DNA from: Comamonas sp.
Lineage (GTDB): Bacteria > Pseudomonadota > Gammaproteobacteria > Burkholderiales > Burkholderiaceae_C
Length of the DNA stretch: 64,000 bases
NCBI GenBank assembly: GCA_047606565.1
Contig: JASGEH010000069.1
Coordinates: forward strand, 23,188 to 87,187
Direction: 5' to 3'
The notes beneath the pieces were generated by a model. That model saw only the letters and a program-made list of their open reading frames with translations, did no database searches and was not told where the DNA came from. The translations under genes and the position numbers were made by a program. Shown here one piece after another: positions 10,790 through 55,034 of the stretch; position 1 is the first letter of the stretch, and each line of letters opens with the position of its first letter.

Positions 10790-11061
10790 GCCGTCTGCCC
10801 CTCCTCCAACACGTCCTCAGCCCCTTCGAACTCGGCGAGGGTCTTGAGGTACGCATAGGCCTGGCAGAACGGGTTGGGGCCATCTATGTCATATGCGCAC
10901 TCCCGAGTGGCCGCGAGCAGCAGTTCCGTCCCAGCCGCCGCGTGACAGTGCACAGCAAACGTCATGCTTGTCTTGTCCGGATTTATTGCAGGCCCGACGA
11001 CCCGGATGTACGCAGAGGGGACCGCGAGGCCGCGATACTCGGAGTCTTTAAGTAATGCCAT
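10786..11061 (-). CDS. Hypothetical protein (91 aa) downstream of the tail fibre gene
   Basis: Start at 11061 (MALLKDSEYRG…) with AAGGA 7 nt upstream. Lower GC than the phage average. The long N-terminal extension of ORF 10786..11238 is rejected because it overlaps the fibre gene. Confidence 0.6.
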   Translation of the reverse strand: MALLKDSEYRGLAVPSAYIRVVGPAINPDKTSMTFAVHCHAAAGTELLLAATRECAYDIDGPNPFCQAYAYLKTLAEFEGAEDVLEEGQTA

Positions 11062-11072
11062 GGTCAATCCTT

Positions 11073-13940
11073 TCAGGCGGTGTGGCCGATGAGGGACAAC
11101 TGATCCTTCGTGAGAAGGGTCAATACCCCTGCGCTGACTGTTTTCGACGTGGCCCCCGGGTTGTAGATCGTGACCCGGACGGCAGACGCTGAATCCACGG
11201 CGGCCGTGATGACGAGCCCGCTGATATTCGTGGACCACGCAAGCTGCACGTTGTTGCCGACGGCAGCGTTGAGGACTGTGTAGTCCTGGCTCACAGTGCT
11301 GCCAGCGGCCACCGTGAAATTCGAATATGCGACCTGAGCAACACGCTCCGCGCCACGCCGATACGTGACCGATTTGATCTGTATCTCGCCGTTCGATGTC
11401 GTACGCTGCAGCGAGAATCCGGAGTTTCCATCCTGGCTGATGACGCTACCCGAGATGACGAAACTAAACCGCTGGAACTTTTGCGTCAATGCGAAAGTGC
11501 CGAGCAAGCCGCTGGACGTTGACGGCTCCCGGTAGCGGCCCTGAAGGGTGTCGCCGGACGCGGATGTGCTGCGAGCGACAACCTCAACGGTCACAGCTCC
11601 CGCACTATACGGGGCAAAAATTTCGTCGTACTGATTGAAAATGAAGACAACTTGCAGGTCGGTCGGCGTGGCAGCAGAGAGCGTAATGTTCTCGCCATCG
11701 GTTCCCACATACAGCCCCCCGTTGTCGGTGTTGAGACTAGGTGCCCGCAGTGCCCCAAGCCCCTTCGCCGTCAGCACCAGTTCGCCCCGGTCGCCGGAGG
11801 CTTGTTGCGTCGACTCGTACCCGTCGAAGCGCCCAAACTCTGTCCCCTTGATCGAAATGTCCGCCATCAGGGTTGCGCTGTAGAGTACGCGCGGACGGTT
11901 GCCAAGCGCATCCGAGACATTCCAGAGTAGCGTCTGTTCCGGGGCCAGCTTGGTGCCTGTTGTGGATTGATGGTGAATCCGTAGCTTGGCCGCCGGAGCG
12001 TTCACACGGTACACGAAGTCGGTAGCGTAACCCTGGCCATCACAGCGGTTCATGTCGAAGTCCCCGTTGTGAATCGCAGAGACGATGGCAGTTGGGCTTC
12101 CGTATTCCGGGAATCCGCTGTCGCCGCCGATATCCACGAATCCCTTGACCTCGTTGACGGCCTCCATGTAATTGCGGGAGTAGCGCTTCTGTCCTCCAGA
12201 TACTTTAATGAATACCCCAGACGAGGGGTTTCCATCGGTCCCCTCCATCATGCCGATCAGGTCGTTATTGTGGACCCAGGCCGATGACCCGAAGCTGCCC
12301 CGCGCGATGTCCAAAATCGTGAAGTGCTTGCCATTGAGCAACCGGTTGTTGCAGACTTCGCCAATGTCGCTGCCCTGCATGAGCAGGTTCACATCGAAAT
12401 ACCGGATCTGATTGCGGCGCACGTCAATGTCAAACGCTTTGATGAGCTGCAGCCCGTACTTTTCGATGTCTGTCTCATTCCACGAAAGCGTGTAAGGGCA
12501 CAGGTAGCAGTCCTGCATGACGAACCGGAGGACTGGGGGGATGGCGGTGGCGTTGGTTAACTCCGCGTCCCGGTCGTTGATGCAGATCGCATTGTCGGCA
12601 ATGATCGTCATGCCGCGAATATCCTGACTGGCCTGTGCTGACTGGTTGTATTGGAGGTAGACAAGACCGTACCCGCCAGGCGAGACATTCGTGATCTTCG
12701 AGTGCGCCGCCGCGCCCTGGAAATATTGGCCGCCGCAGCCCTGGATACGCTGGCCGGGGAGCATCTGGATGCACTCCTCCGGATCGGCCTCATCGATCAC
12801 GACATCGAGCCCACGCGGGTAGTAGATCGCCATTTCGCTCTGATGCAGATCACGTAGCGCCGCACGAGCGGCCGAAGTGCTGCCCCAGCCGCCGTCCGGA
12901 CGCGCTCTGTTGACGTTGACAAAGCCCGAGCCCTCCCGTGTGACGACAGTGAACGCGAGCGAATTGGCGGGGTAGACCGTGGCGTCATCGACGCCTGCAA
13001 CGAGGCGTGCGCCTTTTGTAGATGAGGCCAGGTCCTCCCGAATCTGATCCATGTTCTGCACAAAAACCAACACCCCACCTTCAACCACATAGCGCGTATT
13101 CGCGCCGTCCAGCGTCTCGTCGACATAGATCTCGATGCGGTCGCCGTCGACCAGCTCACCGCGTGCCAGCGCGGCAACGGCCTGTGCGTGGGTGGCGTAA
13201 AACTCCCGGATGGGGCCGGACGCCTTGGCCGATGCGCGAGCATCCTCGGCAGCCTGGTCGGCCAGGGCGCGGTCCGTGGCAGCCTGGGCTGCGTCGGCAG
13301 CTGTGGCTGCGGCATCGGCCCCGGCCAGGCCCGCGTAATGCTTGGCCGAGTAGTTCTCCCCCTCGACAGGATCGACCTCCTGCACCGCCCAGGCTTTCGC
13401 CTCGGTGCGGGCCGCGTCGATCGCTGCAAACGTCGGGTAGCGCTTCTGCTCAACCGCCTCCGTGCCGACGCGCTGCCACAGGATCAGAAACTCGTCGGAG
13501 TTCGGCGATGGTGTACCGAAGAACTGGCCGTCCTGGACGGCCGCGATGCCCGAGGCCGTGGTCAGGTAGATGCCCTGCGAGATCAGCCCGGTGTCGATGC
13601 CCGAGCTCTGCCGCATGCTGAGCCAGCCGCCCTCGGCCGTGCTCAGGTAGACATCCGAGCCATCAGCCATGATCGCCTTGACCCCAGGCCGCGCGTCATA
13701 GCGCTTCCAGCTCCCCGCGTTGAACACCGCGAACGTGCCATCCACGTAGATCTGCCCATCGCCATCGGCCGGCGCCGCCGGCAGCGGCGTATCCACCGGC
13801 TGCGGCGCCAGCAGCGTGTAGAGCCCGAACACGTCGTCGAGCGTGCGCAGGTTCTCGGCCATGCCGTTGGGCGTGTGGAAGGGATCTTGCGTGGGCGCGA
13901 AGCCGGTCCAGAGACCGCGCGCGAGCTGTTGGGTCGCCAT
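11073..13940 (-). CDS. Tail fibre / tailspike-like receptor-binding protein (955 aa), possibly with a beta-helix depolymerase-type C-terminal part
   Basis: Start at 13940 (MATQQLARGLW…), 2 nt after the upstream stop. The N-terminal about 110 aa resemble DUF2793-type fibre N-termini. An Ala-rich linker (…AGADAAATAADAAQAATDRALADQAAEDARA…) follows, then a long Asn/Gly/Ile-rich repetitive region. GC content drops visibly in the 3' two-thirds. Confidence 0.65.
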   Translation of the reverse strand: MATQQLARGLWTGFAPTQDPFHTPNGMAENLRTLDDVFGLYTLLAPQPVDTPLPAAPADGDGQIYVDGTFAVFNAGSWKRYDARPGVKAIMADGSDVYLSTAEGGWLSMRQSSGIDTGLISQGIYLTTASGIAAVQDGQFFGTPSPNSDEFLILWQRVGTEAVEQKRYPTFAAIDAARTEAKAWAVQEVDPVEGENYSAKHYAGLAGADAAATAADAAQAATDRALADQAAEDARASAKASGPIREFYATHAQAVAALARGELVDGDRIEIYVDETLDGANTRYVVEGGVLVFVQNMDQIREDLASSTKGARLVAGVDDATVYPANSLAFTVVTREGSGFVNVNRARPDGGWGSTSAARAALRDLHQSEMAIYYPRGLDVVIDEADPEECIQMLPGQRIQGCGGQYFQGAAAHSKITNVSPGGYGLVYLQYNQSAQASQDIRGMTIIADNAICINDRDAELTNATAIPPVLRFVMQDCYLCPYTLSWNETDIEKYGLQLIKAFDIDVRRNQIRYFDVNLLMQGSDIGEVCNNRLLNGKHFTILDIARGSFGSSAWVHNNDLIGMMEGTDGNPSSGVFIKVSGGQKRYSRNYMEAVNEVKGFVDIGGDSGFPEYGSPTAIVSAIHNGDFDMNRCDGQGYATDFVYRVNAPAAKLRIHHQSTTGTKLAPEQTLLWNVSDALGNRPRVLYSATLMADISIKGTEFGRFDGYESTQQASGDRGELVLTAKGLGALRAPSLNTDNGGLYVGTDGENITLSAATPTDLQVVFIFNQYDEIFAPYSAGAVTVEVVARSTSASGDTLQGRYREPSTSSGLLGTFALTQKFQRFSFVISGSVISQDGNSGFSLQRTTSNGEIQIKSVTYRRGAERVAQVAYSNFTVAAGSTVSQDYTVLNAAVGNNVQLAWSTNISGLVITAAVDSASAVRVTIYNPGATSKTVSAGVLTLLTKDQLSLIGHTA

Positions 13941-27060: not shown

Positions 27061-27267
27061 TCAGGCGCGCCGGCCGCGCAAGGCCCGGCGATGGCGCGCG
27101 CGATGGCGCACCTTGGCGGCCAGGCGCTGCACCTGGCGCGGGCTCCAGCCACGGCGCGCGCGGCGGCCGTAGCCAGCCGGCGCTGCGAACGCGCCGAGGC
27201 CCGTGCCAATGCGCCAGCCCAGGCCGGCCAGAACGGTGGCGACGAGAGCGCGCAGGCGCTGCCTCAT
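27061..27267 (-). CDS. Small single-TM protein with a strongly basic C-terminus (68 aa), lysis-cassette associated
   Basis: ATGA overlap with the endolysin stop. One TM segment (LVATVLAGLGWRIGTGLGAF) is followed by an Arg-rich tail. High GC makes a chance ORF possible. Confidence 0.4.
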   Translation of the reverse strand: MRQRLRALVATVLAGLGWRIGTGLGAFAAPAGYGRRARRGWSPRQVQRLAAKVRHRARHRRALRGRRA

Positions 27268-27770
27268 GCCGCGCCGCCAATCTTTTGCAGATTGCCCGCC
27301 ACGCGCCGCGCCCAGCCCCGGCCGAAGGTGGGCCAGGTGGACAGGCTGCTCATGAACTGCAGGCGGTGGCCGGAGAAGCGCGCGCGCAGCGCGGGCACAT
27401 TGGCCCGGGCCAGTTCCGCAAGCGTCTGCGGCCCGACCACGCCATCCTCGGCCAGGCCGAGCGCGCGCTGCAGGTGGCGGATGGCCGTGCCGATGCCGCT
27501 GTTGACGGCAAAGTCGAACACGTCGAAGGCCAGCCCCGGCGCCATCTGGTCGCAGCGCGCGCGCAGCCAGTAGTCGCGCAGGTAGATGGCCTTGGCGTCG
27601 GCCAACGTCAGCCCGGCGATGTCGAGCTGCGGATAGGCGCGCTTGGAGATGCCGTACTTCGTCTCGCCGCCCGGGTCGCGCGGGTCGTTGACGTAGCCGC
27701 CCTCATGCCCGATGACCTGGGCGAAGGCTTGCTCGAAGGCGGGGGGAAAGGGTGTGGTGCTGGTGGACAT
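27264..27770 (-). CDS. Endolysin, glycoside hydrolase family 108 N-terminal domain with a peptidoglycan-binding C-terminal domain
   Basis: …VIGHEGGYVNDPRDPGGETKYGISKRAYP… is the GH108 signature, and the C-terminal …GLAEDGVVGPQTLAEL… is PG_binding-like. No signal or SAR sequence is present. Confidence 0.9.
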   Translation of the reverse strand: MSTSTTPFPPAFEQAFAQVIGHEGGYVNDPRDPGGETKYGISKRAYPQLDIAGLTLADAKAIYLRDYWLRARCDQMAPGLAFDVFDFAVNSGIGTAIRHLQRALGLAEDGVVGPQTLAELARANVPALRARFSGHRLQFMSSLSTWPTFGRGWARRVAGNLQKIGGAA

Positions 27771-27773
27771 GAT

Positions 27774-27793
27774 GGCTCTGGGGTGACAGAGCC
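27774..27793 (-). promoter_or_regulatory. Hairpin 3 nt upstream of the endolysin start codon
   Basis: The transcribed strand reads GGCTCTG-TCACCC-CAGAGCC-ATC-ATG. No clear Shine-Dalgarno is present. The geometry (7-bp stem, 6-nt loop) matches the hairpin at the tape-measure start. Confidence 0.45.
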
Positions 27794-27859
27794 GTCAGTC
27801 TCGGATTCAGCGGGGCGGGCGTAATTGGAAGGCGTTCAGTTTGTGCATATGAGGCACGC

Positions 27860-28450
27860 TCAAGGCGGATCAGCGTCTTTACCCCCAGATCGTCCCTGAA
27901 AGCCCGCGTACATTTTTGCAATTCTGAAGATATGCATGGTGGCAGCCACCACCGACGTCAACGCATACAGGAAAAGCCCATACCCTATTGCGCCACCCAC
28001 CGCATTCAAAAACGGAAGTGCTGGGCGGATAGGATCCACCAAGGGCGTGTAGAACCACCAGGATTTCGCCAGAATGGCTGCCACCAGCGCCAAGGCCTGC
28101 ACAAGGATGAAATGTACGAAGGTAGAGCACAGTGCCACATAAGCATTGATGTCTGACTCTTCATCATCTTCCGCCAAGATGGCCCGGAATTTCTCGTCAC
28201 CAAAGCCGATAAAAATTGCGAAGCCCCCCAGCGTGAATCCCAGCAAGTTGGGTAGGACGATGATGCTTTGTTCCCACCACGGATCACACTCCAGCCCCAC
28301 GCACCCAAAGCCTATCCATGTTTGAGCCGTAAGCGTCAAAAGAACAATCGCAAGATGCAAATACGGCGAGCATGCCAAAGCCCCCAAGCCACCGTAGGCG
28401 ACCCAGTACACCCTGAAGATATCTGCAACGCCCTTGTATTGCTTAAACAT
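27860..28450 (-). CDS. Multi-pass membrane protein (196 aa, about 4-5 TM), second gene of a low-GC accessory pair
   Basis: The ATG immediately follows the TAA of the upstream gene (…TAAATG…). Hydrophobic segments include IIVLPNLLGFTLGGFAIFIGF, AYVALCSTFVHFILVQALALVAAIL and LNAVGGAIGYGLFLYALTSVVAA, with an acidic loop (EDDEESD). I recognised no family. Confidence 0.75.
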   Translation of the reverse strand: MFKQYKGVADIFRVYWVAYGGLGALACSPYLHLAIVLLTLTAQTWIGFGCVGLECDPWWEQSIIVLPNLLGFTLGGFAIFIGFGDEKFRAILAEDDEESDINAYVALCSTFVHFILVQALALVAAILAKSWWFYTPLVDPIRPALPFLNAVGGAIGYGLFLYALTSVVAATMHIFRIAKMYAGFQGRSGGKDADPP

Positions 28451-29335
28451 TTACTGATTGGCCGCGCTGCGCCTTTGCTTTGCACTGGCCCGGTCTAAAA
28501 CATTCCAAATGGTTTCCACTTTCTCATCCACGAGTTGTGGATAGATCGCTGGCTTTGCTCTGGTTGACTCTGATGCCTTGATCCCGGCTGCATCATAGCC
28601 AATCGCTTCCACATGACCATTGTTTGCGGCAGCTTTGGCCTCAGCCTTCATTTCTTCGTCAGGAATAATACCCTCTGGATCTCTTGAAGTCATCACCTCT
28701 TGAATGCGGTTGATGTTGCGCCTTTCCATGCGCCTCATGATACGTTGCTCGACATCTCCTCCATCATCCGCGTTCGGTCGTTTGAACTCGAAAATGATCT
28801 TGGTCATCCGGTGGATGCTTAGCACTTCATCCACCGCGGTTTCATCAGGAATGACAGTGACCTCTACGGGTGGAGCGTCGTGCTGTCGAGAGACTTCATT
28901 GAAAATCTGTTGCAAGAACCCTTCCGCGATAGATGGTCCCATCGTCGATTTTCTATCCTTGCTGATATACCAAAATCGATGCTCCTTGGGTCTGAAGACA
29001 AACAGGATACGCTCCAAATTGGGATGAAGATTCCCCGGAATGAAGATATTTTCGGTGTCGGCTTCGTCTGCTGGTTTACCTGTTTGTGTATTGAACCAAG
29101 GCGCATCTGGATCGATGTTCGTGAAGCGGTAAATCTCTCCTTGTAACTCATTTTTTTCCACCGCTTTTTCGCTCTCATAAAGCGCGCCAAGTAAATATCC
29201 ATCCGATCTACCTCGACTGGCGATGCGCTTCAGTCGGTATGCCTTCTGAAATAGTTCTACATATGCCTGCGGGCTGTGGGGCGCATGCATTGAGATATTG
29301 ATCTGACGAATTTCAACTGTTCTTGGTTTGGCCAC
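28451..29335 (-). CDS. Soluble 294-aa protein, possibly DUF4747 family, first gene of the low-GC accessory pair
   Basis: GTG start preceded by GAGGAGG. The N-terminus …VEIRQINISMHAPHSPQAYVELFQKAY… and the length fit my recollection of DUF4747, with low certainty. There are no TM segments, and codon use is AT-richer than the phage backbone. Confidence 0.7.
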   Translation of the reverse strand: MAKPRTVEIRQINISMHAPHSPQAYVELFQKAYRLKRIASRGRSDGYLLGALYESEKAVEKNELQGEIYRFTNIDPDAPWFNTQTGKPADEADTENIFIPGNLHPNLERILFVFRPKEHRFWYISKDRKSTMGPSIAEGFLQQIFNEVSRQHDAPPVEVTVIPDETAVDEVLSIHRMTKIIFEFKRPNADDGGDVEQRIMRRMERRNINRIQEVMTSRDPEGIIPDEEMKAEAKAAANNGHVEAIGYDAAGIKASESTRAKPAIYPQLVDEKVETIWNVLDRASAKQRRSAANQ

Positions 29336-29437
29336 AAATCGCCTCCTCGGGGTACAAAGTTAAAGATTTGAAATTGATCAGTCTGCCCACCGCACCGGCA
29401 CATTCGCCGCACATGACGTGGGCCGTCAATCCATGAG

Positions 29438-29935
29438 TCACTGATACGGATCTGCGCTGACCGGCCGCGACGGGCTATAGCTCAGTCTGCGTTCCAACTC
29501 CCGCACCTGGGCGTTGAGTTGCCGAATACGATCGCTCATCTGCGCAGCATCGGGCCCTGTGGGGTTGGCGACCAACTGGGACCGGATCAAAGCGCGCTCT
29601 TCCTTTGCCGCCGCCCACTCGTCCTCCCACCGTTTCCATGTCGCCTTGGACTGCGGGCCCACGCCTTCCGAAACCGCTTTTGCGGCGTAACCCTGCGCGC
29701 GCATGCACAGGATCATCAGGTTGTTGCGGCGCTGTTTTTGGTCAATGCCCTGCAGCCAGTAGCCCACGCTGTAATCCGGCGTCTGGGTGGCCGAAGTCGT
29801 TTCGTACTGGCAGCGGTCAACGGCCCGGTCGACAGGTGTGGCGTCGTCGCGCGTGGGCGTCCAGGTCAGCACGGGCTGGTTGACGGCGCAGCCGGCCAGC
29901 AACAGGCAGATGGCAATGAAGAGGCCGCTACGCAT
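29438..29935 (-). CDS. Lipoprotein (165 aa) with a C-terminal coiled coil
   Basis: Signal peptide plus lipobox (LLLAGC). The start overlaps the upstream gene by 8 nt. The C-terminal segment …IRQLNAQVRELERRL… is helical. Confidence 0.75.
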   Translation of the reverse strand: MRSGLFIAICLLLAGCAVNQPVLTWTPTRDDATPVDRAVDRCQYETTSATQTPDYSVGYWLQGIDQKQRRNNLMILCMRAQGYAAKAVSEGVGPQSKATWKRWEDEWAAAKEERALIRSQLVANPTGPDAAQMSDRIRQLNAQVRELERRLSYSPSRPVSADPYQ

Positions 29936-30557
29936 GGCGGATGGGCTCCACCGCCCAGTTCGACCCTACGCCAAAGGCCGCTTTGCAACTCGGGCACGAG
30001 TCGGAATCCAGCGCAATGGCGGACCGGCAATTCGGACACACGCCCTGGGGCTTTTCTGGCTCTGTCGGCGGGGACGCCACCGTCGACACCCGCACTGCGG
30101 AGGTGGCTTCCAGCGGCGGTAGCTCGCTGCGGCAATGCTTGCAGAGCTTCGCGGCGGCCTTGACCGTTTCGGCGCAGAACGGGCAGGTCCGGGTGTCCCC
30201 GGCCAGGGGAGCCACGGCAGCCGGCGCTGGCGTGCCCCGGTGCTGTTCGATGAGCTCGACGGCGCGATTTCGGGTGAGCGCCCAGATCAGCGCGGCGACC
30301 CAGGGCAGCAAGGCCCATCCCAACAAGAAGTTGAGCCAGAACACGGCGAGGCCGTTGTCATGGGCGCGCTCGAAGGCCACGAATGACGGGATGAAGTAGG
30401 CCGCGCCCGACAGCGCCAGCATGACTCCCAAAAGAATGGCGGCACCGCCGCCTCCCCCGGCCAGCGAAAGCAGCGCAACGATGCCGGAAACTGCGGCGAT
30501 CCCGATTAACAGGTTTTTGCTGTTTGTCCTCATGATCCTCTCCCTATCGCCTTTCAT
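29928..30557 (-). CDS. Superinfection-immunity (T4 Imm-like) membrane domain fused to two zinc-ribbon motifs
   Basis: …YFIPSFVAFERAHDNGLAVFWLNFLLGWALLPWVAALIWALT… matches the Imm_superinfect-type motif as I recall it. The C-terminal zinc ribbons are CPFC…CKHC and CPNC…CPSC. Confidence 0.7.
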   Translation of the reverse strand: MKGDRERIMRTNSKNLLIGIAAVSGIVALLSLAGGGGGAAILLGVMLALSGAAYFIPSFVAFERAHDNGLAVFWLNFLLGWALLPWVAALIWALTRNRAVELIEQHRGTPAPAAVAPLAGDTRTCPFCAETVKAAAKLCKHCRSELPPLEATSAVRVSTVASPPTEPEKPQGVCPNCRSAIALDSDSCPSCKAAFGVGSNWAVEPIRHA

Positions 30558-30581
30558 CTGTATGTCCTGACAGTTAGCGTT

Positions 30582-31076
30582 TCAACACGATGCAGGGTTT
30601 TTTTTAATAGGATGAGCCAGAAAGCGCCAGGACAGCCAGCTCACGATCAAGGAAAAAAGCACGAAGATCAGCGCTTGCATTTGCGCCATGACTGACAACG
30701 GGCGCCCTGGCGTAACCAGTAACATGCCCATCACGACGAGTCCCAAGCAGGCCATCACCGTTGTGATGAAGTAACCCGACAAAGAAAGCAGGACGTCCTT
30801 CTTGGGCTCAATCAGAACCGGGCGCTGCGGGCCATCTGGTGCATCAGCCCGCACGCCTAATGGGGCGTTCTGAATCTGTTGTGTTGGTTCGATTACGATT
30901 CGTTCTGGCGCTGGCGGCCATTGAATAATGGTCAGATGGCTGACATGGGTATGGTTCACAACACTGCCCACCACATTCCCTCCAACCTCCCCGACCTGGA
31001 CGTGGCCCGATCCCGTACCACTGATGGCCTGATCCGGGGGCTGGCTGGGTAACTGGTCTTCTGGTTTGTCTTGCAT
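30582..31076 (-). CDS. Membrane protein (164 aa): N-terminal repressor-tail-like motif and a C-terminal 2-TM hairpin
   Basis: It starts 68 nt downstream of the repressor stop on the same strand. Residues 17-38, AISGTGSGHVQVGEVGGNVVGS, parallel repressor residues 127-148. The two TM segments are LLSLSGYFITTVMACLGLVVMGMLLV and ALIFVLFSLIVSWLSW. Confidence 0.7.
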   Translation of the reverse strand: MQDKPEDQLPSQPPDQAISGTGSGHVQVGEVGGNVVGSVVNHTHVSHLTIIQWPPAPERIVIEPTQQIQNAPLGVRADAPDGPQRPVLIEPKKDVLLSLSGYFITTVMACLGLVVMGMLLVTPGRPLSVMAQMQALIFVLFSLIVSWLSWRFLAHPIKKNPASC

Positions 31077-31144
31077 CCCTCATTCCTCCTGCTGTTCGAC
31101 ATGGGCTGGCAGGCGCGGAAAGCTGCTTTGCCAGCGAATCCCCG

Positions 31145-31618
31145 TTACTTCGTCTTGCGTGGCGCCCTCGCAGGCGAGCCATACACATCCCCACTGGTCG
31201 ATCCCACTTGCACGTGACCGTTGCCAGAGCCGGTAATGCTCATGCTGCCAGGGGGCTTGGACGACGTTTTTCCCGATGTCCCCGCGAGGCCCGCCGCCAG
31301 CAGCGCCGCCGTCTGGATGAGGTTGGCCTTGGCCTGCGGCGACGCGCGGCGGTAGCTGTCGAGCAGCACCTGCTCGGCCGGGTCCAGCGTGGGCGCGGCC
31401 GGATCGCGCGTGCCCGTCAGGACGTAGGCCACGTCCACTCCCGCCCCCCATAACGCTGACAGCACTTCGCCGCCCGGCACGGCCAGCCCGCGCTCGTATC
31501 GGCCCCATTGCTCTCGCGTCACGAACGCCAGCGCGGCGGCTTCAGCCTGGCTGAGGCCGAGCGCTGTCCTGGCGTCTTTCAGGCGACCCCCAAAAAGAGA
31601 TGAAAAATTCTCTTTCAT
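31145..31618 (-). CDS. XRE-family HTH repressor (phage c-repressor candidate)
   Basis: The N-terminal HTH is …LKDARTALGLSQAEAAALAFVTREQWGRYERG…. The gene diverges from the Ner-like gene across an AT-rich operator region. No S24 peptidase domain is present. Confidence 0.8.
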   Translation of the reverse strand: MKENFSSLFGGRLKDARTALGLSQAEAAALAFVTREQWGRYERGLAVPGGEVLSALWGAGVDVAYVLTGTRDPAAPTLDPAEQVLLDSYRRASPQAKANLIQTAALLAAGLAGTSGKTSSKPPGSMSITGSGNGHVQVGSTSGDVYGSPARAPRKTK

Positions 31619-31621
31619 ATC

Positions 31622-31650
31622 TTGATGAAGAGACTTTTTGGTCTCATAAT
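31622..31650 (+). promoter_or_regulatory. Candidate early promoter (TTGATG-17 nt-CATAAT) for the Ner-like gene
   Basis: Near-consensus sigma70 hexamers with 17-nt spacing, 67 nt upstream of the ner-like ATG. Confidence 0.5.
31630..31645. promoter_or_regulatory. Candidate operator palindrome GAGAC-N6-GTCTC
   Basis: A perfect 5+5 inverted repeat lying in the spacer of the candidate early promoter, 12 nt from the repressor start codon. Confidence 0.45.
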
Positions 31651-31716
31651 TCGTTTACTCAAGTTCACACCCATGTCATCCCGCGCCAACGGGAGCACAC
31701 ACAACAGGACACAGCC

Positions 31717-31962
31717 ATGGCTCTCAAAAAGCGTTCCGAGGTCCGCGCCGAGTTCATCCGCAAGGGGTGGTCGATCTCGGCGTGGGCCACTCGCAACGGC
31801 TATTCGCCCAACCTGGTCATCGCCATCATCAATGACGACGACGTCAAGCCGGTGCGCAAATGCACGCGGGGCGACTCGCACAACATTGCCGTGCTGCTGG
31901 GCCTGAAGGAGGGGGAGGTTTCCCGCCCACCCCATTTCGGCCGCCTTGCCGCCGCCGCGTGA
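31717..31962 (+). CDS. ner: Ner-like DNA-binding protein
   Basis: 81 aa. …KGWSISAWATRNGYSPNLVIAIIN… parallels the Mu Ner/Nlp HTH region. It diverges from the repressor gene. Confidence 0.7.
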   Translation: MALKKRSEVRAEFIRKGWSISAWATRNGYSPNLVIAIINDDDVKPVRKCTRGDSHNIAVLLGLKEGEVSRPPHFGRLAAAA

Positions 31963-32008: not shown

Positions 32009-32377
32009 TTACACGACTGTTACCGCCGAAAAAGCCGGGACTTTCCGGCCGGCCACGGCGGCTCGGTGGCTGCGGGCAGCGTCCAGTGCCTGGGCCAGTT
32101 CCCGCAGTGTGCGCCCGGCGCTGGCCAGCACGGGCGAGTGCGCATCGGGCCTGGAGGTGCGCCAGGCGCCGGATAACTGCGCGCCTGCGAGGGTGCCGTC
32201 CTGCTCCAGGACGGCGGCCATCAGCAGCAGCGCGCGGGCCAGGCCTTCGATGCGCCCGGCCAGTTCGTCGAAGTGGCGTGGCGCCATGTCGTCGGCCTTC
32301 TCGTCGGCCATCTCGCCCATTTTCTCGTTCATCTCCTCACCCATCTTCTCGTCCACCGTCTCGTTGATCTCGCCCAT
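32009..32377 (-). CDS. Acidic hypothetical protein (122 aa) with EKMGE-type repeats, antisense to the early arm
   Basis: The ATG at 32377 is preceded by AAGGAG at 7 nt. Codon third positions are strongly G/C (GGC GAG ATC AAC GAG ACG GTG GAC…). The N-terminus is MGEINETVDEKMGEEMNEKMGEMADEKADDM. Confidence 0.65.
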   Translation of the reverse strand: MGEINETVDEKMGEEMNEKMGEMADEKADDMAPRHFDELAGRIEGLARALLLMAAVLEQDGTLAGAQLSGAWRTSRPDAHSPVLASAGRTLRELAQALDAARSHRAAVAGRKVPAFSAVTVV

Positions 32378-32479
32378 GTCGGCTCCTTGCTTCGTTGCCG
32401 CCATTGTTCGGGCGAGCCGGGTTTCCAGGGCGATCTTTGTTTGGACGGCCCTGTCCACGCCCCGCAGGAGGGCCTTCTA

Positions 32480-32950
32480 ATGCCGCGCCGCAATTGGAAA
32501 CAGGTGCGCCCGGCCAGCCTGCTGGAGGCGTTGCGCCTGTGCAAGGACTTCGCGCTGGAGCGCCGCCGCCTGTCGGTCGAACGCATCGCCGCGCTGATGG
32601 GGGTGACGCACGACAGCCTCTACAAGTGGCTGGCCACGGGCCGCATGCCGGCCGTGCTGATCCCGCCCTACGAGCATGCCTGCGGCATCCACCTGGTCTC
32701 GACCTGGCTGGCGGCTTCGGCCGGCAAGCTGGTGATCGACATGCCCAAGGGCCGGGTGGCCAGCACGCCCGACCTGGTCGAGGTCAACAGCGGCTGCGCC
32801 GCCGCCTTGAGCCTGCTGACCGCCTTCTACGCCAACCCCGCCCAGGCCGACACGGCCGCGACGCTGGACGCGCTGCGCCTGCACCTGGAGCAGGTCGCTT
32901 ATCACCACCACAACGTGGCGGCTGCCACGACACCTGAACTGGAGTTCTGA
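32480..32950 (+). CDS. HTH DNA-binding protein (156 aa), early region
   Basis: The ATG at 32480 is preceded by CAGGAGG. The HTH-like segment is …LSVERIAALMGVTHDSLYKWLATGRMP…. The upstream part of ORF 32273..32950 is the antisense shadow of the 122-aa gene. Confidence 0.65.
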   Translation: MPRRNWKQVRPASLLEALRLCKDFALERRRLSVERIAALMGVTHDSLYKWLATGRMPAVLIPPYEHACGIHLVSTWLAASAGKLVIDMPKGRVASTPDLVEVNSGCAAALSLLTAFYANPAQADTAATLDALRLHLEQVAYHHHNVAAATTPELEF

Positions 32951-33298: not shown

Positions 33299-34312
33299 AT
33301 GGCTCGAACAGCAAACAAACCCCAGGCCCCCGCACCGATGGACGTGATCCCCGTGGCGAAGGTCGAGCGCATCGAAGCGGCGCAGGACGCCCTGGCGCTG
33401 GAGCAGAAGCAGGCCCAGGCCCATGTGCGCGCCGTGGCGCTGCAGGTGGGCTACCAGTTGCCCGCCGACAGCGCCGACCCCGACCTGATCCAGCGTGACA
33501 TCGCCGCCAACATGCGGCGCAGCGTGGAGGCCTGCCTGGAAGTGGGGCGCGGGCTGGCGGTGCTCAAGGCCGTCTGCGGCCATGGCAATTTCCTCGCGCG
33601 GCTCGAGGTGCTGGGGATCGAGACGCGCGTGGCGCAACGCTTCATGCAGTCCGCGATCAAGTTCTCAAATGCGGCGTCAACGCCGCTTTTGAATGCCATC
33701 GGCAACCAGACCAAGCTTTTCGAGATGCTGGTGCTCGACGACGAGCAGATCGACGAACTGGCCCTGACCGGCGAAACCGGCGAGCTGCACCTGGATGACA
33801 TCGCGACCATGTCGGTGAAGGAGCTGCGCGAGGCGCTCCGACAAGCGAAGCACGACGAGCAGTACATGGGCGACAAGCTCTCCAAGGAGCGCGAGCGTGC
33901 CGACCAGGCCGAGAAGCGACTGCGCAAGGGCGGGCCGGAGACCCGCCCGCTTGATGAACGCATCACGCCATTTCAGGTTGAGCTGACCGAGCGCCAGTCG
34001 CTGCTGGAAAAAGCGCTGTTGGCGCATGACGAGGCCGTCACGGCGCTGGACGCATGGTGGACACAGGAGGTCGTTACCGCCCCAGGCTATGACCCTGAGG
34101 CACCCGCGCCGCTGCCCGCGCCAGTTCTGGCGGTGGCCCAGCACCTGTACGACGCCATCGAGCGCACAGCCGCCATTGTCGGCGGCCTGCAGCACCGCAT
34201 GTGGGAAGTGTTCGGCGACCAGATTCCGAACGCCCGCCAGTACCTGCTGCAAGACCCTGCGCTGGTCTCCGATCTGGCCGCTGCCGAAACAGCAGCGCAA
34301 GGCCATGACTGA
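33299..34312 (+). CDS. DUF3102-like protein
   Basis: 337 aa. …VGRGLAVLKAVCGHGNFLARLEVLGIETRVAQRFMQSAIKFSN… matches the DUF3102 core as I recall it. It lies immediately upstream of the transposase gene and overlaps it. Confidence 0.6.
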   Translation: MARTANKPQAPAPMDVIPVAKVERIEAAQDALALEQKQAQAHVRAVALQVGYQLPADSADPDLIQRDIAANMRRSVEACLEVGRGLAVLKAVCGHGNFLARLEVLGIETRVAQRFMQSAIKFSNAASTPLLNAIGNQTKLFEMLVLDDEQIDELALTGETGELHLDDIATMSVKELREALRQAKHDEQYMGDKLSKERERADQAEKRLRKGGPETRPLDERITPFQVELTERQSLLEKALLAHDEAVTALDAWWTQEVVTAPGYDPEAPAPLPAPVLAVAQHLYDAIERTAAIVGGLQHRMWEVFGDQIPNARQYLLQDPALVSDLAAAETAAQGHD

Positions 34313-36137
34313 CCCCATCACGCTGGACGAATCCTCCATGGCCGCATCCCTTTCACCCGAGATCGCCGACTACGTCCGCGATCTGGCCCGCAGGCTGGAC
34401 GGCGCCCGCCACGGCCAGGCCGGGGCGCTGGTGGACGCTGCTGCGGCTTTCTTGGGCATGTCGCGGCAAACCGTCTATCGCCACTTGAAGGAATGCGCGG
34501 GCTGGGCCAGTGGCCGCAAGTGCCGCGCCGACAAGGGCAGCACCAGCGTGGATGCCGAAGCGCTGACCAAGCTGGCCGCAGCCCAACGCGAGGCCGTGCG
34601 CGACAACGGCAAGCAGACGCTGTTCACCACCACGGGCCGAGGCATTCTGGAACAGAACGGCACCCGCCTGGGCGTGAGCAACAGCCAGCTCAATCGCCTG
34701 ATGCGCGACCGCAAGCTGGGCGTCGCGGCCCAGCGCGTGGCCGACCCGGTGCAGCAACTGCGCGCGCTGCACCCCAACCATGTGCATGAGGTCGATCCGT
34801 CGCTGTGCCTGGTCTATTACCTCAAGGATCGCCAGCACATCATGCGCGACCGCGATTTCTACAAGAACAAGCTGGAGAACTACGCGAAGGTGAAGTTCAA
34901 GGTCTTCCGCTACGTGCTCTACGACCGTGCCAGCGGTGCCATCGTGCCCTGGTATGTGGAGGCCGCAGGCGAAGACCAGCACAACTTGTTCGACTTTCTC
35001 ATGTACGCCTGGGGCCAGCAGCCGGGTCGGCTGTTCCACGGCGTACCCAAGGTGATGCTGTGGGACAAGGGCAGCGCCAACCAGTCCGGCGCGATCAAGA
35101 ACCTGCTGGAAGCCCTGGGCGTGCAGGCGCTCGACCACCAGGCGGGCAACGCCCGTGCCAAGGGTGGCGTCGAAGGTGCCAACAACATCGTCGAAACCCA
35201 GTTCGAGAGCCGCCTGCGGTTCGAGCCTGTCAACAGCGTGGCCGAACTCAACGCCGCCGCCACGGCCTGGGCCGAAGCCTGGAACGCCGATCTGCTGCCC
35301 GGCCAGAACGCCAACCTGCGCCGCCAGGGCCTGGCCGGCCGCGTGAGCCGCTACGACCTGTGGCAGCTCATCACGGCCGAGCAGCTGCGGCGGCTGCCCG
35401 ATGTGGACGTGTGCCGCGCGCTCATGGTTTCCAAGGCCGAGGAACGGCTGGTCAGGCCCAATATGACGGTGAGCTATCGCCACCCGCAGGCCGATGCCCC
35501 GGCGCTCTATAGCCTGCGCGGCCTGGAAGGTATCAACGTAGGCGACAAGATCATGGTGCGCGCGCTGGTCTATGGCAACAACGCCATCCAGATCCAGGTT
35601 CCACGCTACGACGGCGAGACGCTGACCTACCGCGTGGAGCCGGAGACTGAATACGACCGGTTCGGCATGCCGCTCTCGGCGGCAGTCATTGGTGAGGAAT
35701 ACAAGTCCATCGCCCGCACAGAAGCCCAGCATGCCGCCCACGCGATGGACACACAGGCCTACCCCGGCCTGGACCCTGACCAGATCAAGGCCGCGCGCGA
35801 CAAGAAGGCGGTTCCGTTCAACGGTGAGCTCAAGTCACACAGCTATCTGAAGGACGTGGAAATCCCCACCTTCATCCCGCGCAGCGGCACCGAGATCGAA
35901 GCGCCCGCGCATGCCCAGGCTGCGGCTGCGCCGATGCTGGTCAACGTGACGGCGGCGCTGCTGCGCATCGCCAACGCGGTGCGGCGCAACCTGACCGAGT
36001 CCGAGCGCACGTTTTTGCGCACGCGCTTTGCCGACGGCGTGCCCGAAGACCAGCTCGACAGCCTGATCGACCAGTTCATCAACCCCGAGCCTGCCGCCGA
36101 GCCTGTGCGTGCCGCTGGCGGTCTCCGAGCGATCTAA
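34305..36137 (+). CDS. DDE (retroviral-integrase-fold) transposase, MuA-like
   Basis: Start at 34305 (MTDPITLDES…), 610 aa. An N-terminal HTH (…MSRQTVYRHLKE…) is followed by candidate catalytic residues in …HVHEVDPSL…, …MLWDKGSAN… and …KGGVEGANN…. Confidence 0.85.
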   Translation: MTDPITLDESSMAASLSPEIADYVRDLARRLDGARHGQAGALVDAAAAFLGMSRQTVYRHLKECAGWASGRKCRADKGSTSVDAEALTKLAAAQREAVRDNGKQTLFTTTGRGILEQNGTRLGVSNSQLNRLMRDRKLGVAAQRVADPVQQLRALHPNHVHEVDPSLCLVYYLKDRQHIMRDRDFYKNKLENYAKVKFKVFRYVLYDRASGAIVPWYVEAAGEDQHNLFDFLMYAWGQQPGRLFHGVPKVMLWDKGSANQSGAIKNLLEALGVQALDHQAGNARAKGGVEGANNIVETQFESRLRFEPVNSVAELNAAATAWAEAWNADLLPGQNANLRRQGLAGRVSRYDLWQLITAEQLRRLPDVDVCRALMVSKAEERLVRPNMTVSYRHPQADAPALYSLRGLEGINVGDKIMVRALVYGNNAIQIQVPRYDGETLTYRVEPETEYDRFGMPLSAAVIGEEYKSIARTEAQHAAHAMDTQAYPGLDPDQIKAARDKKAVPFNGELKSHSYLKDVEIPTFIPRSGTEIEAPAHAQAAAAPMLVNVTAALLRIANAVRRNLTESERTFLRTRFADGVPEDQLDSLIDQFINPEPAAEPVRAAGGLRAI

Positions 36138-52290: not shown

Positions 52291-54011
52291 AAATCATCCA
52301 ACGCGACGCGCCGCCCCGCGCCGTCTGGGCGCTGCAGCAAGCCGGCGTCCACCCCCTGCTGGCCCAGCTCTACGCCGCGCGCGGCGTGGTGGCCGCCGAC
52401 GAACTCGACGACGGCATGGCCCGCCTGCTGCCGCCCGCCTCGCTGCTGGGCGCCCAACAGGCCGCCGCGCTGCTGGCCGACACCCTCGCCGCCGGCCGGC
52501 GCATCACCGTGGTGGCCGACTACGACTGCGACGGCGCCACCGCCTGCGCCGTCGCGCTGCGCGGCCTGAAACTGCTGGGCGCCCCGCACGTGCGCTTCAT
52601 CGTGCCCGACCGCGTGACCGACGGCTACGGCCTGTCTGCCCCCATCTCCGAGCGCGTGCACGCGCTCGGCACCGACCTGCTGCTGACGGTGGACAACGGC
52701 ATCGCCAGCCTCGACGGCGTGGCGCGCGCCAAGGCGCTGGGCCTGCAGGTGCTGGTCACCGACCACCACCTGCCCGCGCAAGTGGACGGCCGCGTCGTGC
52801 TGCCCGAGGCCGACGTGCTGGTCAACCCCAACCAGCCCGGCTGCAACTTCGCCAGCAAGCACATCGCCGGCGTCGGCGTGATCTTCTACGTGCTGCTGGC
52901 GCTGCGCGCCGAACTGCGCGCGCGCGGCGTCTTTACCGCCGCCACCCAGCCCAAGCTCGACAGCCTGCTGCCACTGGTGGCGCTGGGCACCGTGGCCGAC
53001 GTGGTCCGGCTCGACGCCAACAACCGCCGCCTGGTCGCGCAGGGCCTGAAGCGCATCCGCGCCGGCGCCCTGCCGCCCGGCATGCTGCAGCTCTTCAACG
53101 TCGCCAGCCGCAAGAGCGAGGCCGCCACCACCTTCGACTTCGGCTTCGCCCTGGGCCCGCGCATCAACGCCGCCGGCCGGCTGGCCGACATGACGGTCGG
53201 CATCGAATGTCTGCTGACCGACGACATGGGCCGCGCCGAGCACCTGGCGCGCCAGCTCGACACCATCAACCGCGAGCGCCGCGACATCGAGGGCGGCATG
53301 CGCGAGCAGGCCCTGCTCGCCGCCGAAACCCTGTTCGACGAGACCGAGACGCCGCCCGCGGCCATCGCCGTCTTCGACCCCGACTTCCACGAAGGCGTGG
53401 TCGGCATCGTCGCCTCGCGCATCAAGGACCGGCTGCACCGCCCTACCTTCGTCTTCGCCGCCAGCCAGGCGCCGGGCCAGGAACACGTCCTCAAGGGCTC
53501 GGGCCGCTCGATCCCGGGCTTCCACCTGCGCGACGCGCTGGACCTCGTCAGCAAGCGCCACCCCGGCCTGCTGCTGCGCTTCGGCGGCCACGCCATGGCG
53601 GCCGGCTGCACCCTGCTCGAAGAAAACTTCGCCACCTTCGAACACGCCTTCGCCCAGGCCGCGCATGAGCTGATCGACAGCGCCAGCCTGCAACGCCGCC
53701 TGGAAACCGACGGCCCGCTGGCGCCCGAGTACTGCCGCACCGACATCGTCGACACCCTGCACCGCGAAGTCTGGGGCCAGGGCTTCGCCCCGCCTACCTT
53801 CAGCGAGGACATCGAGGTGCTGTCGCAGCGGCTGGTCGGCGAAAAACACCTTGCCCTCAAGCTGCGCCACCACGGCCAGCCCATCGACGGCATCTGGTTC
53901 GGCCGCACCGAAAGCCTGCCCGCCCGCGTCCGCCTGGCCTTCCGCATGGAAGCCGACGAATGGCGCGGCGTGCGCAAGGTGCGGTTTCTGGTGGAGGGGG
54001 CGGAGTTGTGA
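52287..54011 (+). CDS. recJ: Single-stranded-DNA-specific exonuclease RecJ
   Basis: DHH motifs (…VVADYDCDGATA…, …LLLTVDNGI…, …VLVTDHHLP…) and a DHHA1-like …GGHAMAAG…. Confidence 0.92.
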   Translation: MKIIQRDAPPRAVWALQQAGVHPLLAQLYAARGVVAADELDDGMARLLPPASLLGAQQAAALLADTLAAGRRITVVADYDCDGATACAVALRGLKLLGAPHVRFIVPDRVTDGYGLSAPISERVHALGTDLLLTVDNGIASLDGVARAKALGLQVLVTDHHLPAQVDGRVVLPEADVLVNPNQPGCNFASKHIAGVGVIFYVLLALRAELRARGVFTAATQPKLDSLLPLVALGTVADVVRLDANNRRLVAQGLKRIRAGALPPGMLQLFNVASRKSEAATTFDFGFALGPRINAAGRLADMTVGIECLLTDDMGRAEHLARQLDTINRERRDIEGGMREQALLAAETLFDETETPPAAIAVFDPDFHEGVVGIVASRIKDRLHRPTFVFAASQAPGQEHVLKGSGRSIPGFHLRDALDLVSKRHPGLLLRFGGHAMAAGCTLLEENFATFEHAFAQAAHELIDSASLQRRLETDGPLAPEYCRTDIVDTLHREVWGQGFAPPTFSEDIEVLSQRLVGEKHLALKLRHHGQPIDGIWFGRTESLPARVRLAFRMEADEWRGVRKVRFLVEGAEL

Positions 54012-54037
54012 GACCGAGGGCGGCCGCAACAAAGGGT

Positions 54038-54916
54038 TCAGCGCCGCCCCATCCCCCTGCTTCCCAGAATGACGTAGACCCCACCCGCCATAATCACCAG
54101 CATCCCCGACAAGGCAAACAGAGAAGGCTCGGCACCAAACACCAGAAAGCCGATCACGGCCGACCACACCAATTGGGTATACGAAAAGGGCGCCAGGCTG
54201 GCAGGACTCCCGCCTTCATAAGCCTTGATCAGCATGAACTGCGCCAAGAAGCCAGACAACCCGAGCGCCCCCAGCAAAATGATGTGCTTCACCTCGAAGC
54301 TCATGGAGTCGACCGACCAGAAGAATGGGACCACAAAACTCATCACCATCGCCCCCACCCCACCCGTCATGACATTCGTCACGACGGGATTTTCAGTGGT
54401 TGCAAACATCCGGGTGAAGATCTGAAATCCCGCATATAGGAGTGCAGCCATCAACGGCAGCAGCCAGGACAACTCAAAGTCGCCATGACCTGGCCTGGTG
54501 ATCAGCAAGACCCCAATAACGCCCATAAACGTGGTGCCCCAGACTCGTCCGCTAACTTTTTCCTTCAAAAAGAAGAAAGTCAAAACGGTCGCAATCAGCG
54601 GTGCCGTGAAATAGAGAGAGGTCAACTCCGCCAAGGGTAGATATTTGGCGCCGTTCATCATGCACAGCGAGACCCCCAGCATCAAAAGGCCACGCACGAC
54701 TTGCGCGCCCATGCGTTGACTCCGGAACATGGCCCCGCCATGCGCTGGAAAGAACACAGCCACGGCCACCAGCGTATGGATGAGATATCGGGCCCAGACC
54801 AGAAAAACAACCGGATAAATTGCCGCCAGATATTTCGTGAGCGCATCGAACACCGCAAAAGCCAAGACAGCGGCCAGCATCCATCCGATGGATGCCCGTC
54901 GATTCATTCGATTCAT
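54038..54916 (-). CDS. EamA/DMT-family transporter
   Basis: 292 aa with about 10 TM segments. GC content is lower than in the surrounding genes. Confidence 0.75.
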   Translation of the reverse strand: MNRMNRRASIGWMLAAVLAFAVFDALTKYLAAIYPVVFLVWARYLIHTLVAVAVFFPAHGGAMFRSQRMGAQVVRGLLMLGVSLCMMNGAKYLPLAELTSLYFTAPLIATVLTFFFLKEKVSGRVWGTTFMGVIGVLLITRPGHGDFELSWLLPLMAALLYAGFQIFTRMFATTENPVVTNVMTGGVGAMVMSFVVPFFWSVDSMSFEVKHIILLGALGLSGFLAQFMLIKAYEGGSPASLAPFSYTQLVWSAVIGFLVFGAEPSLFALSGMLVIMAGGVYVILGSRGMGRR

Positions 54917-55034
54917 GGGCGGGCTGCTCCTGTCCTTCGCTGGTCACACATCAGCGCTCGTTCAAATTATCGCCATCGTTGACAACTTCGTCAACGATGC
55001 TTCAGCCGGCCCCTCTTCCCTCTAGAATTCCCCC

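Follow-up and report, generated by a model that had tools for sequence, protein, structure and literature searches.

The stretch of DNA analysed here, hereafter the window, comprises 64,000 nucleotides (nt) of a metagenome-assembled genome of Comamonas sp. (contig JASGEH010000069.1, positions 23,188 to 87,187), to whose entries its 294-aa, 165-aa and 196-aa proteins (Table 1) are 100% identical. The 40 kb surrounding the genes discussed below are a transposable (Mu/B3-like) prophage, with Pfam and PHROG matches to MuA- and MuB-like genes, ner, a cII-like gene, a terminase and a lysis cassette, and our subject is the block of six co-oriented minus-strand genes of this prophage that leads from its repressor down to its endolysin (Table 1). 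The early genes (a ner-like gene, a cII-like activator, a further regulator, the MuA-like transposase and the MuB-like protein) run rightward on the plus strand, and the repressor is read leftward, toward the lysis and late genes. The minus strand runs straight on from the block into the lysis cassette, where the endolysin is followed by holin and spanin, and the terminase lies on the same strand. This layout is also that of the cultured Pseudomonas B3-like phages Ps56, Fc22 and JBD25, whose annotated repressors are homologous to the one of the window. The latter matches PF13560 (1.2e-8), PF01381 and the PHROG repressor/regulator families, and over residues 9-100 it is 43-46% identical to the annotated repressors of Fc22 and Ps56.

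Table 1. Features of the repressor-to-endolysin region and of its upstream neighbourhood, in window positions (aa, amino acids; TM, transmembrane).
Feature	Position	Strand	Description
GH108 endolysin	27264-27770	-	PF05838 1.7e-27, phrog_315; lower boundary of the accessory slot
Spacer before lysis cassette, 89 nt	27771-27859	-	rich in C and poor in G on the transcript
4-TM membrane partner, 196 aa	27860-28450	-	begins right after the DUF4747 stop codon
DUF4747 protein, 294 aa	28451-29335	-	PF15931
Lipoprotein, 165 aa	29438-29935	-	lipobox; 8-nt overlap with the preceding gene
Imm-like/zinc-ribbon protein, 209 aa	29928-30557	-	PF14373, DZR, DZR_2
ORF164, 164 aa	30582-31076	-	head motif, linker, C-terminal 2-TM hairpin
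ORF164 head motif	30963-31046	-	residues 11-38, N-terminal, cytoplasmic; SQPPDQAISGTGSGHVQVGEVGGNVVGS
Putative repressor, 157 aa	31145-31618	-	XRE helix-turn-helix, helical C-terminal domain, G/V-rich tail motif, basic end
Repressor tail motif	31175-31261	-	residues ~120-148; SKPPGSMSITGSGNGHVQVGSTSGDVYGS
Divergent regulatory spacer, repressor/ner-like gene	31619-31716		candidate operators I1 and I2
ner-like gene	31717-31962	+	phrog_925; divergent from the repressor
ORF149	32009-32458	-	small conserved gene between ner and the cII-like gene
MuA-like transposase	34026-36137	+	PHROG match

An earlier note on this DNA had described a repressor gene followed on the same strand by five open reading frames (ORFs), with gaps of 68, 24, -8, 102 and 0 nt, and both coordinates and spacings prove exact. 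Its count of four membrane or envelope proteins among the five products also holds: hydropathy analysis gives two TM segments in ORF164, three hydrophobic segments in the 209-aa protein and four TM segments in the 196-aa protein, the 165-aa protein has a lipobox, and the 294-aa protein is devoid of TM segments. Nor do a terminator scan and folding of the spacers yield a convincing intrinsic terminator between the genes, as the note had stated. Terminator-like sites number 4, against 5.7 in shuffled sequence, and both of those on the minus strand lie inside coding sequence; the 68-nt spacer, the 102-nt spacer and the spacer after the block fold no better than their shuffles (z of +1.5, +1.0 and -1.3, respectively). 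Rfam returned no match, and no tRNA was found.

Base composition sets the block apart from the rest of the prophage. The GC content falls to 0.51-0.57 at 28-30 kb, against about 0.69 elsewhere. At third codon positions (GC3) it is 0.78 for the repressor, 0.62 for ORF164, 0.81 for the Imm-like gene, 0.79 for the lipoprotein, 0.50 for the DUF4747 gene and 0.61 for its TM partner, and 0.91 for the endolysin. Because these values of 0.50-0.81 contrast with the 0.85-0.95 of the phage core, we regard the block as accessory, and the composition of the slot fits modular acquisition.

The first gene after the repressor, ORF164, is preceded by the Shine-Dalgarno sequence AGGAGG and encodes TM segments at residues 103-121 and 127-153. 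It has no family in Pfam, PHROGs or PADLOC, and it is an ORFan: among 1.84 billion representatives, searched exhaustively with HMMER, there was no match but itself. The earlier note had listed it as a membrane protein among the accessory genes. It is not generic membrane cargo, since it sits in a conserved repressor-partner position and shares a motif with the repressor. Local alignment of the repressor tail with the ORF164 head yields 16 identities over 28 positions and a score of 81, and 11 of the 16 scored identities are encoded by different codons. Non-cognate tail/head pairs reach a mean of 21.7 (standard deviation 7.1) and a maximum of 68; the window pair is the highest of all.

Such matching is widespread. 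From 80 viral loci with related repressors, reduced to 53 non-redundant ones, the last 45 residues of each repressor were compared with the first 70 of the next ORF. In 20 of the 53 loci, where 2.7 are expected, the cognate score lies at or above the 95th percentile of the non-cognate scores, and in 24 the cognate partner ranks among the top five. In 20,000 permutations the observed cognate sum was never reached, neither for all 53 loci nor within the 11 loci of type A, defined by the motif G.G.VQ[VI]G..GG; this last result indicates that tail and head co-vary inside a motif class. Other classes are G..NRVAGRD[YF], F.GA.[IV]GQ.V.GDV, and a 54-60-aa ORF that copies the helical C-terminal domain of the repressor. 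In the repressor, a short basic end comes after the motif. As a rule the partners have a conserved "FGT...L...RY.E" domain, and many of them a membrane anchor at the C-terminus; those of the window, L008 and L090 (other loci are designated by L numbers) have a 2-TM hairpin instead. A motif of 15-30 residues shared by tail and head occurs in the window, L003, L006-L008, L010-L018, L026, L030, L041, L065, L079, L080, L090, L100, L101 and L103, and motif-bearing ORFs occupy the position of ORF164 in L003, L006-L008, L090, L093, L100 and L101.

The question arises as to how the two proteins came to share a sequence. A recent DNA duplication or gene conversion was considered and rejected, as across the pairs 161 of 248 identical residues (65%) are encoded by different codons. 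These codon differences argue for selection at the protein level.

The matched pair is not restricted to transposable phages. It is found in the P2-like Escherichia phage 520873, and a type B pair is present in P2-like prophages of 520 of 5,426 complete E. coli genomes (~10%), where annotation goes no further than "helix-turn-helix domain-containing protein" for the first gene and "membrane protein" or "hypothetical protein" for the second. WP_000786771.1 (tail ...ISGGNNRIAGRDYNETKGR) and its partner WP_033544553.1 (head MAVNSNGSNNRVAGRDFHEKN...) are an example. A full-text literature search turned up no paper on such a repressor-partner pair.

We provisionally place ORF164 in the immunity circuit and not among the exclusion genes: it would bind or tether the tail of its cognate repressor, or act as a decoy for it. 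A bolder proposal would see in the repressor and the next gene's product an undescribed two-protein immunity switch built on a matched, co-evolving motif of beta type, possibly akin to amyloid signalling. The partner, often membrane-anchored (ORF164 or the WP_033544553 type), would recognise the tail of its cognate repressor only, and would sequester, template or protect it. Maintenance or induction of the prophage would in this way be linked to a signal from the membrane or from infection, without recourse to RecA-type cleavage. We consider this full proposal unlikely. In layout the pair recalls known amyloid-signalling pairs (BASS in Bell/NLR, E. coli Bab/Agp, HET-S/NWD2), which share a C-terminal/N-terminal motif of about 20-28 residues between the products of adjacent collinear genes; the repressor/partner motif is likewise rich in G, N and V (1.84-, 1.72- and 1.52-fold) and poor in L and P (0.53- and 0.55-fold), with within-pair identities of about 45-70%. 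Of the other residues in the bias of amyloid-signalling motifs, Q (1.15-fold) and I (1.14-fold), which should be enriched, are so only slightly, and K, which should be depleted, stands at 0.80-fold. The known pairs differ in joining an NLR/TPR sensor to a pore-forming effector, whereas here a helix-turn-helix repressor is matched with a small, often membrane-anchored protein, and the type D repressor pairs share a helical domain rather than a beta-type motif. The likeness is a resemblance of layout only.

The second accessory gene encodes the 209-aa protein, for which the label of Imm-like/zinc-ribbon protein given in the earlier note is borne out. Residues 54-94 match PF14373 (Imm_superinfect) at 7.3e-14, with 51.8 bits against a gathering cut-off of 27.9, and the protein matches phrog_1039, "immunity to superinfection", at 1.3e-17; two zinc ribbons (DZR and DZR_2) are recognised besides. 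A ribosome-binding site, GGGAGAGGA, precedes the ninth codon (30533), which is probably the actual start of the gene. A homologue 55% identical to it occupies the same slot in prophage L093. The Imm protein of phage T4 blocks the DNA entry of superinfecting T-even phages. The window protein resembles it by a small membrane domain that matches PF14373 above the gathering score, and differs from it by its length (201-209 aa), an extra TM segment and the two C-terminal zinc ribbons.

The identification of the 165-aa product as a lipoprotein is likewise confirmed. Its signal peptide ends in a lipobox that can be read directly (MRSGLFIAICLLLAG followed by the cysteine, LLAG/C) and that agrees with the consensus [LVI][ASTVI][GAS]C; its homologues also have lipoboxes (AVAGC and LITGC). 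The family has only four known members, and the two whose context was read both lie in the same slot, among different neighbours. The lipoprotein has no match in Pfam, PHROG or PADLOC and no relatives in viral contigs. Receptor masking, which had been proposed for it, finds no support in a family of four members without an informative domain.

The last two genes of the block recall phage lambda, whose cI-rexAB genes include the classical abortive-infection pair expressed in lysogens. The 294-aa protein matches PF15931 (DUF4747) at 7.5e-70, over profile positions 1-251 of 257. Its AlphaFold2 model has a predicted local distance difference test (pLDDT) score of 86.9, and when it was compared by Foldseek with 350,542 PDB chains, the top match was lambda RexA (8TWQ, E-value 2.4e-5, probability 1.0), followed by RdgC (2OWL, 2OWY) and CENP-N/L. 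RdgC and CENP-N/L are also the published structural neighbours of RexA (PMC11077077), and phage RdgC proteins are among the BFVD matches of the model. The 196-aa protein, with its four TM segments and an all-helical AlphaFold2 model (pLDDT 84), belongs to a family of 467 members without a Pfam model. Its top BFVD neighbours, which are not significant, include a 165-aa protein of Sbash (the length of gp31) and a protein from the very uncultured phage that the DUF4747 model had matched.

The two genes travel together. In all eight other loci examined (L001-L005 and L090-L092, five loci coming from a genome scan seeded with a 12-sequence DUF4747 alignment), the 4-TM gene directly follows the DUF4747 gene, and the membrane partner is 58-79% identical across them, with invariant segments in and after its second TM segment; it varies less than the DUF4747 protein does. 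Such pairs occur outside prophages too: in L091 and L092 it is chromosomal, behind a 340-nt intergenic region. At L091 (3890-5037 and 7001-8437), a non-prophage site, the pair lies near an HTH_3 and AbiEii pair and an unannotated gene of 537 aa, an arrangement that looks like a small defence island.

In the literature, weak HHpred matches tie DUF4747 to lambda RexA, to Sbash gp30 and to CarolAnn gp44, each with a 4-TM partner. Genes 43/44 of CarolAnn are co-expressed with the repressor (45-44-43), Sbash 30/31 have a promoter of their own, and "DUF4747/CarolAnn" is listed as a type of immune operon (PMC13373217). Because of the fold match, the adjacent 4-TM partner and this listed operon type, we file the window pair as a predicted RexAB/CarolAnn-type abortive-infection module, a system of known kind, with membership at the level of fold and architecture only. 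As in lambda cI-rexA-rexB, the strand of the repressor goes on to encode a cytoplasmic protein of RexA fold and then a 4-TM protein; the differences are that sequence homology to the lambda pair is lacking, that three genes separate the window pair from the repressor, and that the phage is transposable and not lambdoid. With CarolAnn gp44/gp43, Sbash gp30/gp31 and Butters gp30/gp31 the pair shares a prophage-encoded, DUF4747-related cytoplasmic protein next to a 4-TM protein. It differs from these actinophage systems in matching PF15931 at the strength given above, where the actinophage proteins give weak HHpred matches, in the length of the protein (294 against ~370 aa) and in its betaproteobacterial host. 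Strongly DUF4747-positive proteobacterial pairs of this kind, with their strictly conserved 4-TM partner, would be fold-level relatives of RexA that rule-based tools, such as the PADLOC RexAB models, miss.

The fold itself leaves room for another role, in which the DUF4747 protein would act mainly on the lysis-lysogeny switch of its own prophage and not as an anti-phage sensor. Non-specific DNA binding is known for RexA and for its actinophage homologues, and the lambda switch is modulated by RexA (PMC11077077); a RexB-independent DNA-binding role that biases this switch toward lysis has been reported for RexA. With its RexA/RdgC fold, the window protein could do the same, and the pair lies within the immunity region in three related Mu-like prophages. 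It also occurs, however, at non-prophage chromosomal sites near an Abi/toxin-antitoxin module, and its membrane partner, besides being strictly co-inherited, is the better conserved of the two, which argues for a two-component effector system. We give such a role in the switch little credit, and keep the abortive-infection assignment.

We compared the stretch between repressor and lysis cassette across related transposable prophages (identities are at the amino-acid level; those of the repressors are given for L003 and L006-L008). The slot, which in the window contains ORF164, the Imm-like/zinc-ribbon protein, the lipoprotein, the DUF4747 protein and the 4-TM protein, is filled differently in each. 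In L003 (Comamonas suwonensis), whose core early genes are 52-70% identical to those of the window and whose repressor is 32% (tblastn) or 36% (alignment) identical, it contains a motif ORF, a 177-aa TM protein, the DUF4747 protein and the 4-TM protein. L090 has a motif ORF with TM segment, a zinc-ribbon-TM2 protein, a DUF4124 protein, and the DUF4747 and 4-TM pair. In L006 (repressor 46% identical) a motif ORF is followed by a DUF4124 protein, a proline-rich ORF and a 180-aa 2-TM protein; in L007 (45%) by a DUF4124 protein and a 291-aa protein; and in L008 (44%), where the motif ORF has a TM segment, by a 185-aa 2-TM protein. L093, in which the repressor was not located, has a motif ORF, the Imm-like/zinc-ribbon homologue, and 75-aa and 346-aa proteins. 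L100 has a motif ORF, a 267-aa protein and a homologue of the lipoprotein, and L101 a motif ORF, a lipoprotein homologue and a second lipoprotein. In Ps56, a different lipoprotein directly follows the repressor. The high turnover of cargo that the earlier note expected among related Mu-like prophages is thus observed, with reshuffled cargo in nine of them.

Some of this alternative cargo deserves mention for itself, although none of it has a PADLOC match. L006 (6513-7055, minus strand) and L008 (6441-6998, minus strand) share a conserved protein of 180-185 aa, with a 2-TM hairpin in its centre, directly upstream of the endolysin, that is, in the position of the DUF4747 pair of the window. Neither Pfam nor PADLOC matches it, a guess that it might be SLATT-like found no support in either, and it may be another defence candidate. 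A family of soluble proteins of 267-291 aa without domain match occupies the same slot in L007 (6619-7494, minus strand) and L100 (5161-5964, plus strand).

Such re-assortment raises the possibility that the block is a set of modules (repressor and ORF164; Imm-like protein and lipoprotein; DUF4747 pair), each with its own promoter, which share a strand in a recombination-prone slot and some of which respond to infection or stress instead of being constitutive in lysogens. The block falls into three compositional parts, the 102-nt spacer before the DUF4747 gene has a GC content of 0.53, and modules re-assort separately among related prophages. The DUF4747 pair, which stands alone in the chromosomes of L091 and L092 with an upstream region of its own, may for that reason carry a promoter, as Sbash 30/31 do. 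On the other hand, the upstream regions of the DUF4747 genes of the eight loci, once aligned, contain no conserved promoter-like element, three of the spacers are short (24, -8 and 0 nt), and terminators were not found; the co-transcript of repc and e4 in phage Fc02, described below, provides a precedent for read-through. Independent promotion therefore seems to us possible but doubtful.

The precedent is the Fc02 lysogen, in which RNA-seq revealed transcription of only ~1.9 kb of the prophage, olg1/olg2-repc-e4, where olg1 and olg2 are small ORFs that lie upstream of the repressor and run antisense to the early operon, and e4 is a downstream accessory gene; transcripts of the holin-endolysin cluster appeared only after induction (PMC9936078). 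Olg1 has been shown to have exclusion activity. The lysogeny regions of Fc02 and Ps56 have the same architecture as that of the window, with homologous repressors, an accessory gene downstream and small same-strand ORFs upstream. They differ from it in that Fc02 has one accessory gene (e4) and the window prophage five, and in that the Ps56 repressor (123 aa) is without tail motif and is followed by a lipoprotein gene. By this analogy, lysogens most likely transcribe the slot along with the repressor.

Transcription of the block within the lytic programme, together with the lysis and late genes after induction, is an alternative, its membrane proteins then serving lysis timing or exclusion during lytic growth and not the protection of lysogens. 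The block does lie directly upstream of the endolysin, holin and late genes, on the same strand and with no terminator between, and its four membrane or envelope products could suit such a function. Yet in Fc02 the lysogen transcribes the gene after the repressor, while the holin-endolysin genes come on only upon induction; the cargo is not conserved; the DUF4747 pair also exists outside prophages, beside AbiEii; and a separate holin and spanins already follow the endolysin. We consider a lytic role quite improbable.

If the block is transcribed in lysogens, its transcript would probably be stopped ahead of the endolysin by other means than an intrinsic terminator. On the transcript, the spacer at 27771-27859 has a C content of 0.39 and a G content of 0.20, a composition that would be compatible with Rho-dependent termination. 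The same spacer contains a perfect 7-bp inverted repeat (GGCTCTG-N6-CAGAGCC, 27776-27795, minus strand), which ends 3 nt before the endolysin ATG, where the ribosome-binding site is expected; this hairpin could be an element of translational or late-activator control.

At the other extremity, the term "repressor-led" used in the earlier note is doubtful, because a conserved gene, ORF149, lies upstream on the repressor strand, as olg1/olg2 do in Fc02. ORF149 has a GC3 of 0.82 and matches phrog_25550 (1.8e-5). Over its C-terminal ~80 aa it is conserved in L008, L010, L011, L014 and L017, with position and strand unchanged, and its equivalent in L100 is an 81-aa gene, so that the position is conserved in six other loci. 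Translation probably begins at the ATG at 32287, for a product of ~92 aa; the 57 N-terminal codons form an acidic low-complexity run and are probably untranslated. The lysogenic transcription unit may begin with ORF149, which is a positional, same-strand analogue of olg1/olg2. At the divergent spacer that separates repressor and ner-like gene, the inverted repeats I1 and I2 (31595-31645) are candidate operators, and a promoter-like site, TTGATG-17-CATAAT, lies on the plus strand (31622-31650).

Two side observations concern the rest of the window. The cII-like ORF (32273-32950, plus strand) has a 69-codon N-terminal extension without family match, its PHROG match beginning at residue 70; its true start is probably 32480, in which case the apparent overlap with ORF149 disappears. 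Two patches of low GC content, one at 11000-13000 (0.59) within a 1157-aa minus-strand ORF of the tail region, the other at 54000-55000 (0.56) around a 292-aa minus-strand ORF in what is presumably the host part of the window, may both be horizontally acquired segments.

Taken together, these data make it probable, in our judgement, that the block is a lysogenic repressor slot carrying a repressor partner (ORF164), an Imm-like protein, a lipoprotein and a Rex-like module. Its transcript might start upstream, at ORF149. ORF164 would be a membrane-anchored partner that binds the repressor tail or competes with it, within the immunity circuit and not in exclusion; the Imm-family membrane/zinc-ribbon protein would be the best candidate for blocking the entry of incoming phage DNA; and the DUF4747 protein, presumably DNA-binding through its RexA/RdgC fold, would by analogy sense an infecting phage and activate the 4-TM partner, leading to membrane depolarisation.

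Several results weigh against this reading. As regards transcription, promoter scans found no sigma-70-like promoter for the repressor strand, and no terminator that would prevent read-through into the lysis genes was found between block and endolysin. As regards the Rex-like module, the global TM-score between the 294-aa model and RexA is only 0.29, among global scores of 0.29-0.33; values of about 0.3 are expected for hinged two-domain proteins, but the caveat stays. A profile-sequence comparison (hhalign) of the DUF4747 protein with lambda RexA gives a probability of 0.1%, and the lambda proteins belong to other Pfam families (RexA to PF15969, RexB to PF15968). The PADLOC RexA and RexB models, with which lambda RexA scores 9e-110, miss the window pair at E-values up to 0.1, phmmer found nothing in the PDB for the 294-aa protein, and the TM partner has no significant structural (BFVD) or sequence match to RexB. 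Both proteins of the pair are without tblastn match (E-value up to 1e-3) in 50,697 GenBank phage records, a collection in which the presence of CarolAnn and Sbash is assumed. The Imm assignment of the 209-aa protein depends on a Pfam domain of 42 residues, and motif sharing between repressor and ORF164 is a sign of co-evolution, not of physical interaction.

The earlier note had interpreted the block as a stacked immunity/exclusion island offering several layers of superinfection exclusion. We find this right in kind, the island being accessory, probably lysogenic and of high turnover, and the interpretation is partly supported: the Imm_superinfect protein and the RexA-fold DUF4747 pair belong to exclusion and abortive-infection families. 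It over-reaches in its specific mechanisms and in making the repressor the leader of the operon. We regard the block as an ordinary moron island whose recognisable components are all of known kinds, with one possibly new regulatory feature.

As a whole, the island would offer a betaproteobacterial, transposable-phage example of a known pattern, in which defence genes ride on the repressor transcript, and the slot between repressor and lysis genes of B3-like prophages appears as a place to mine for new defence genes. The matched motif of repressor tail and partner head is more consequential than the island, and is the feature worth following up. To our knowledge, it is not obvious how many Mu-like and P2-like repressors are induced. 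For this missing control, a cognate partner co-evolving with the repressor's tail offers a concrete and testable candidate, and its presence in about a tenth of complete E. coli genomes should make the genetics easy.

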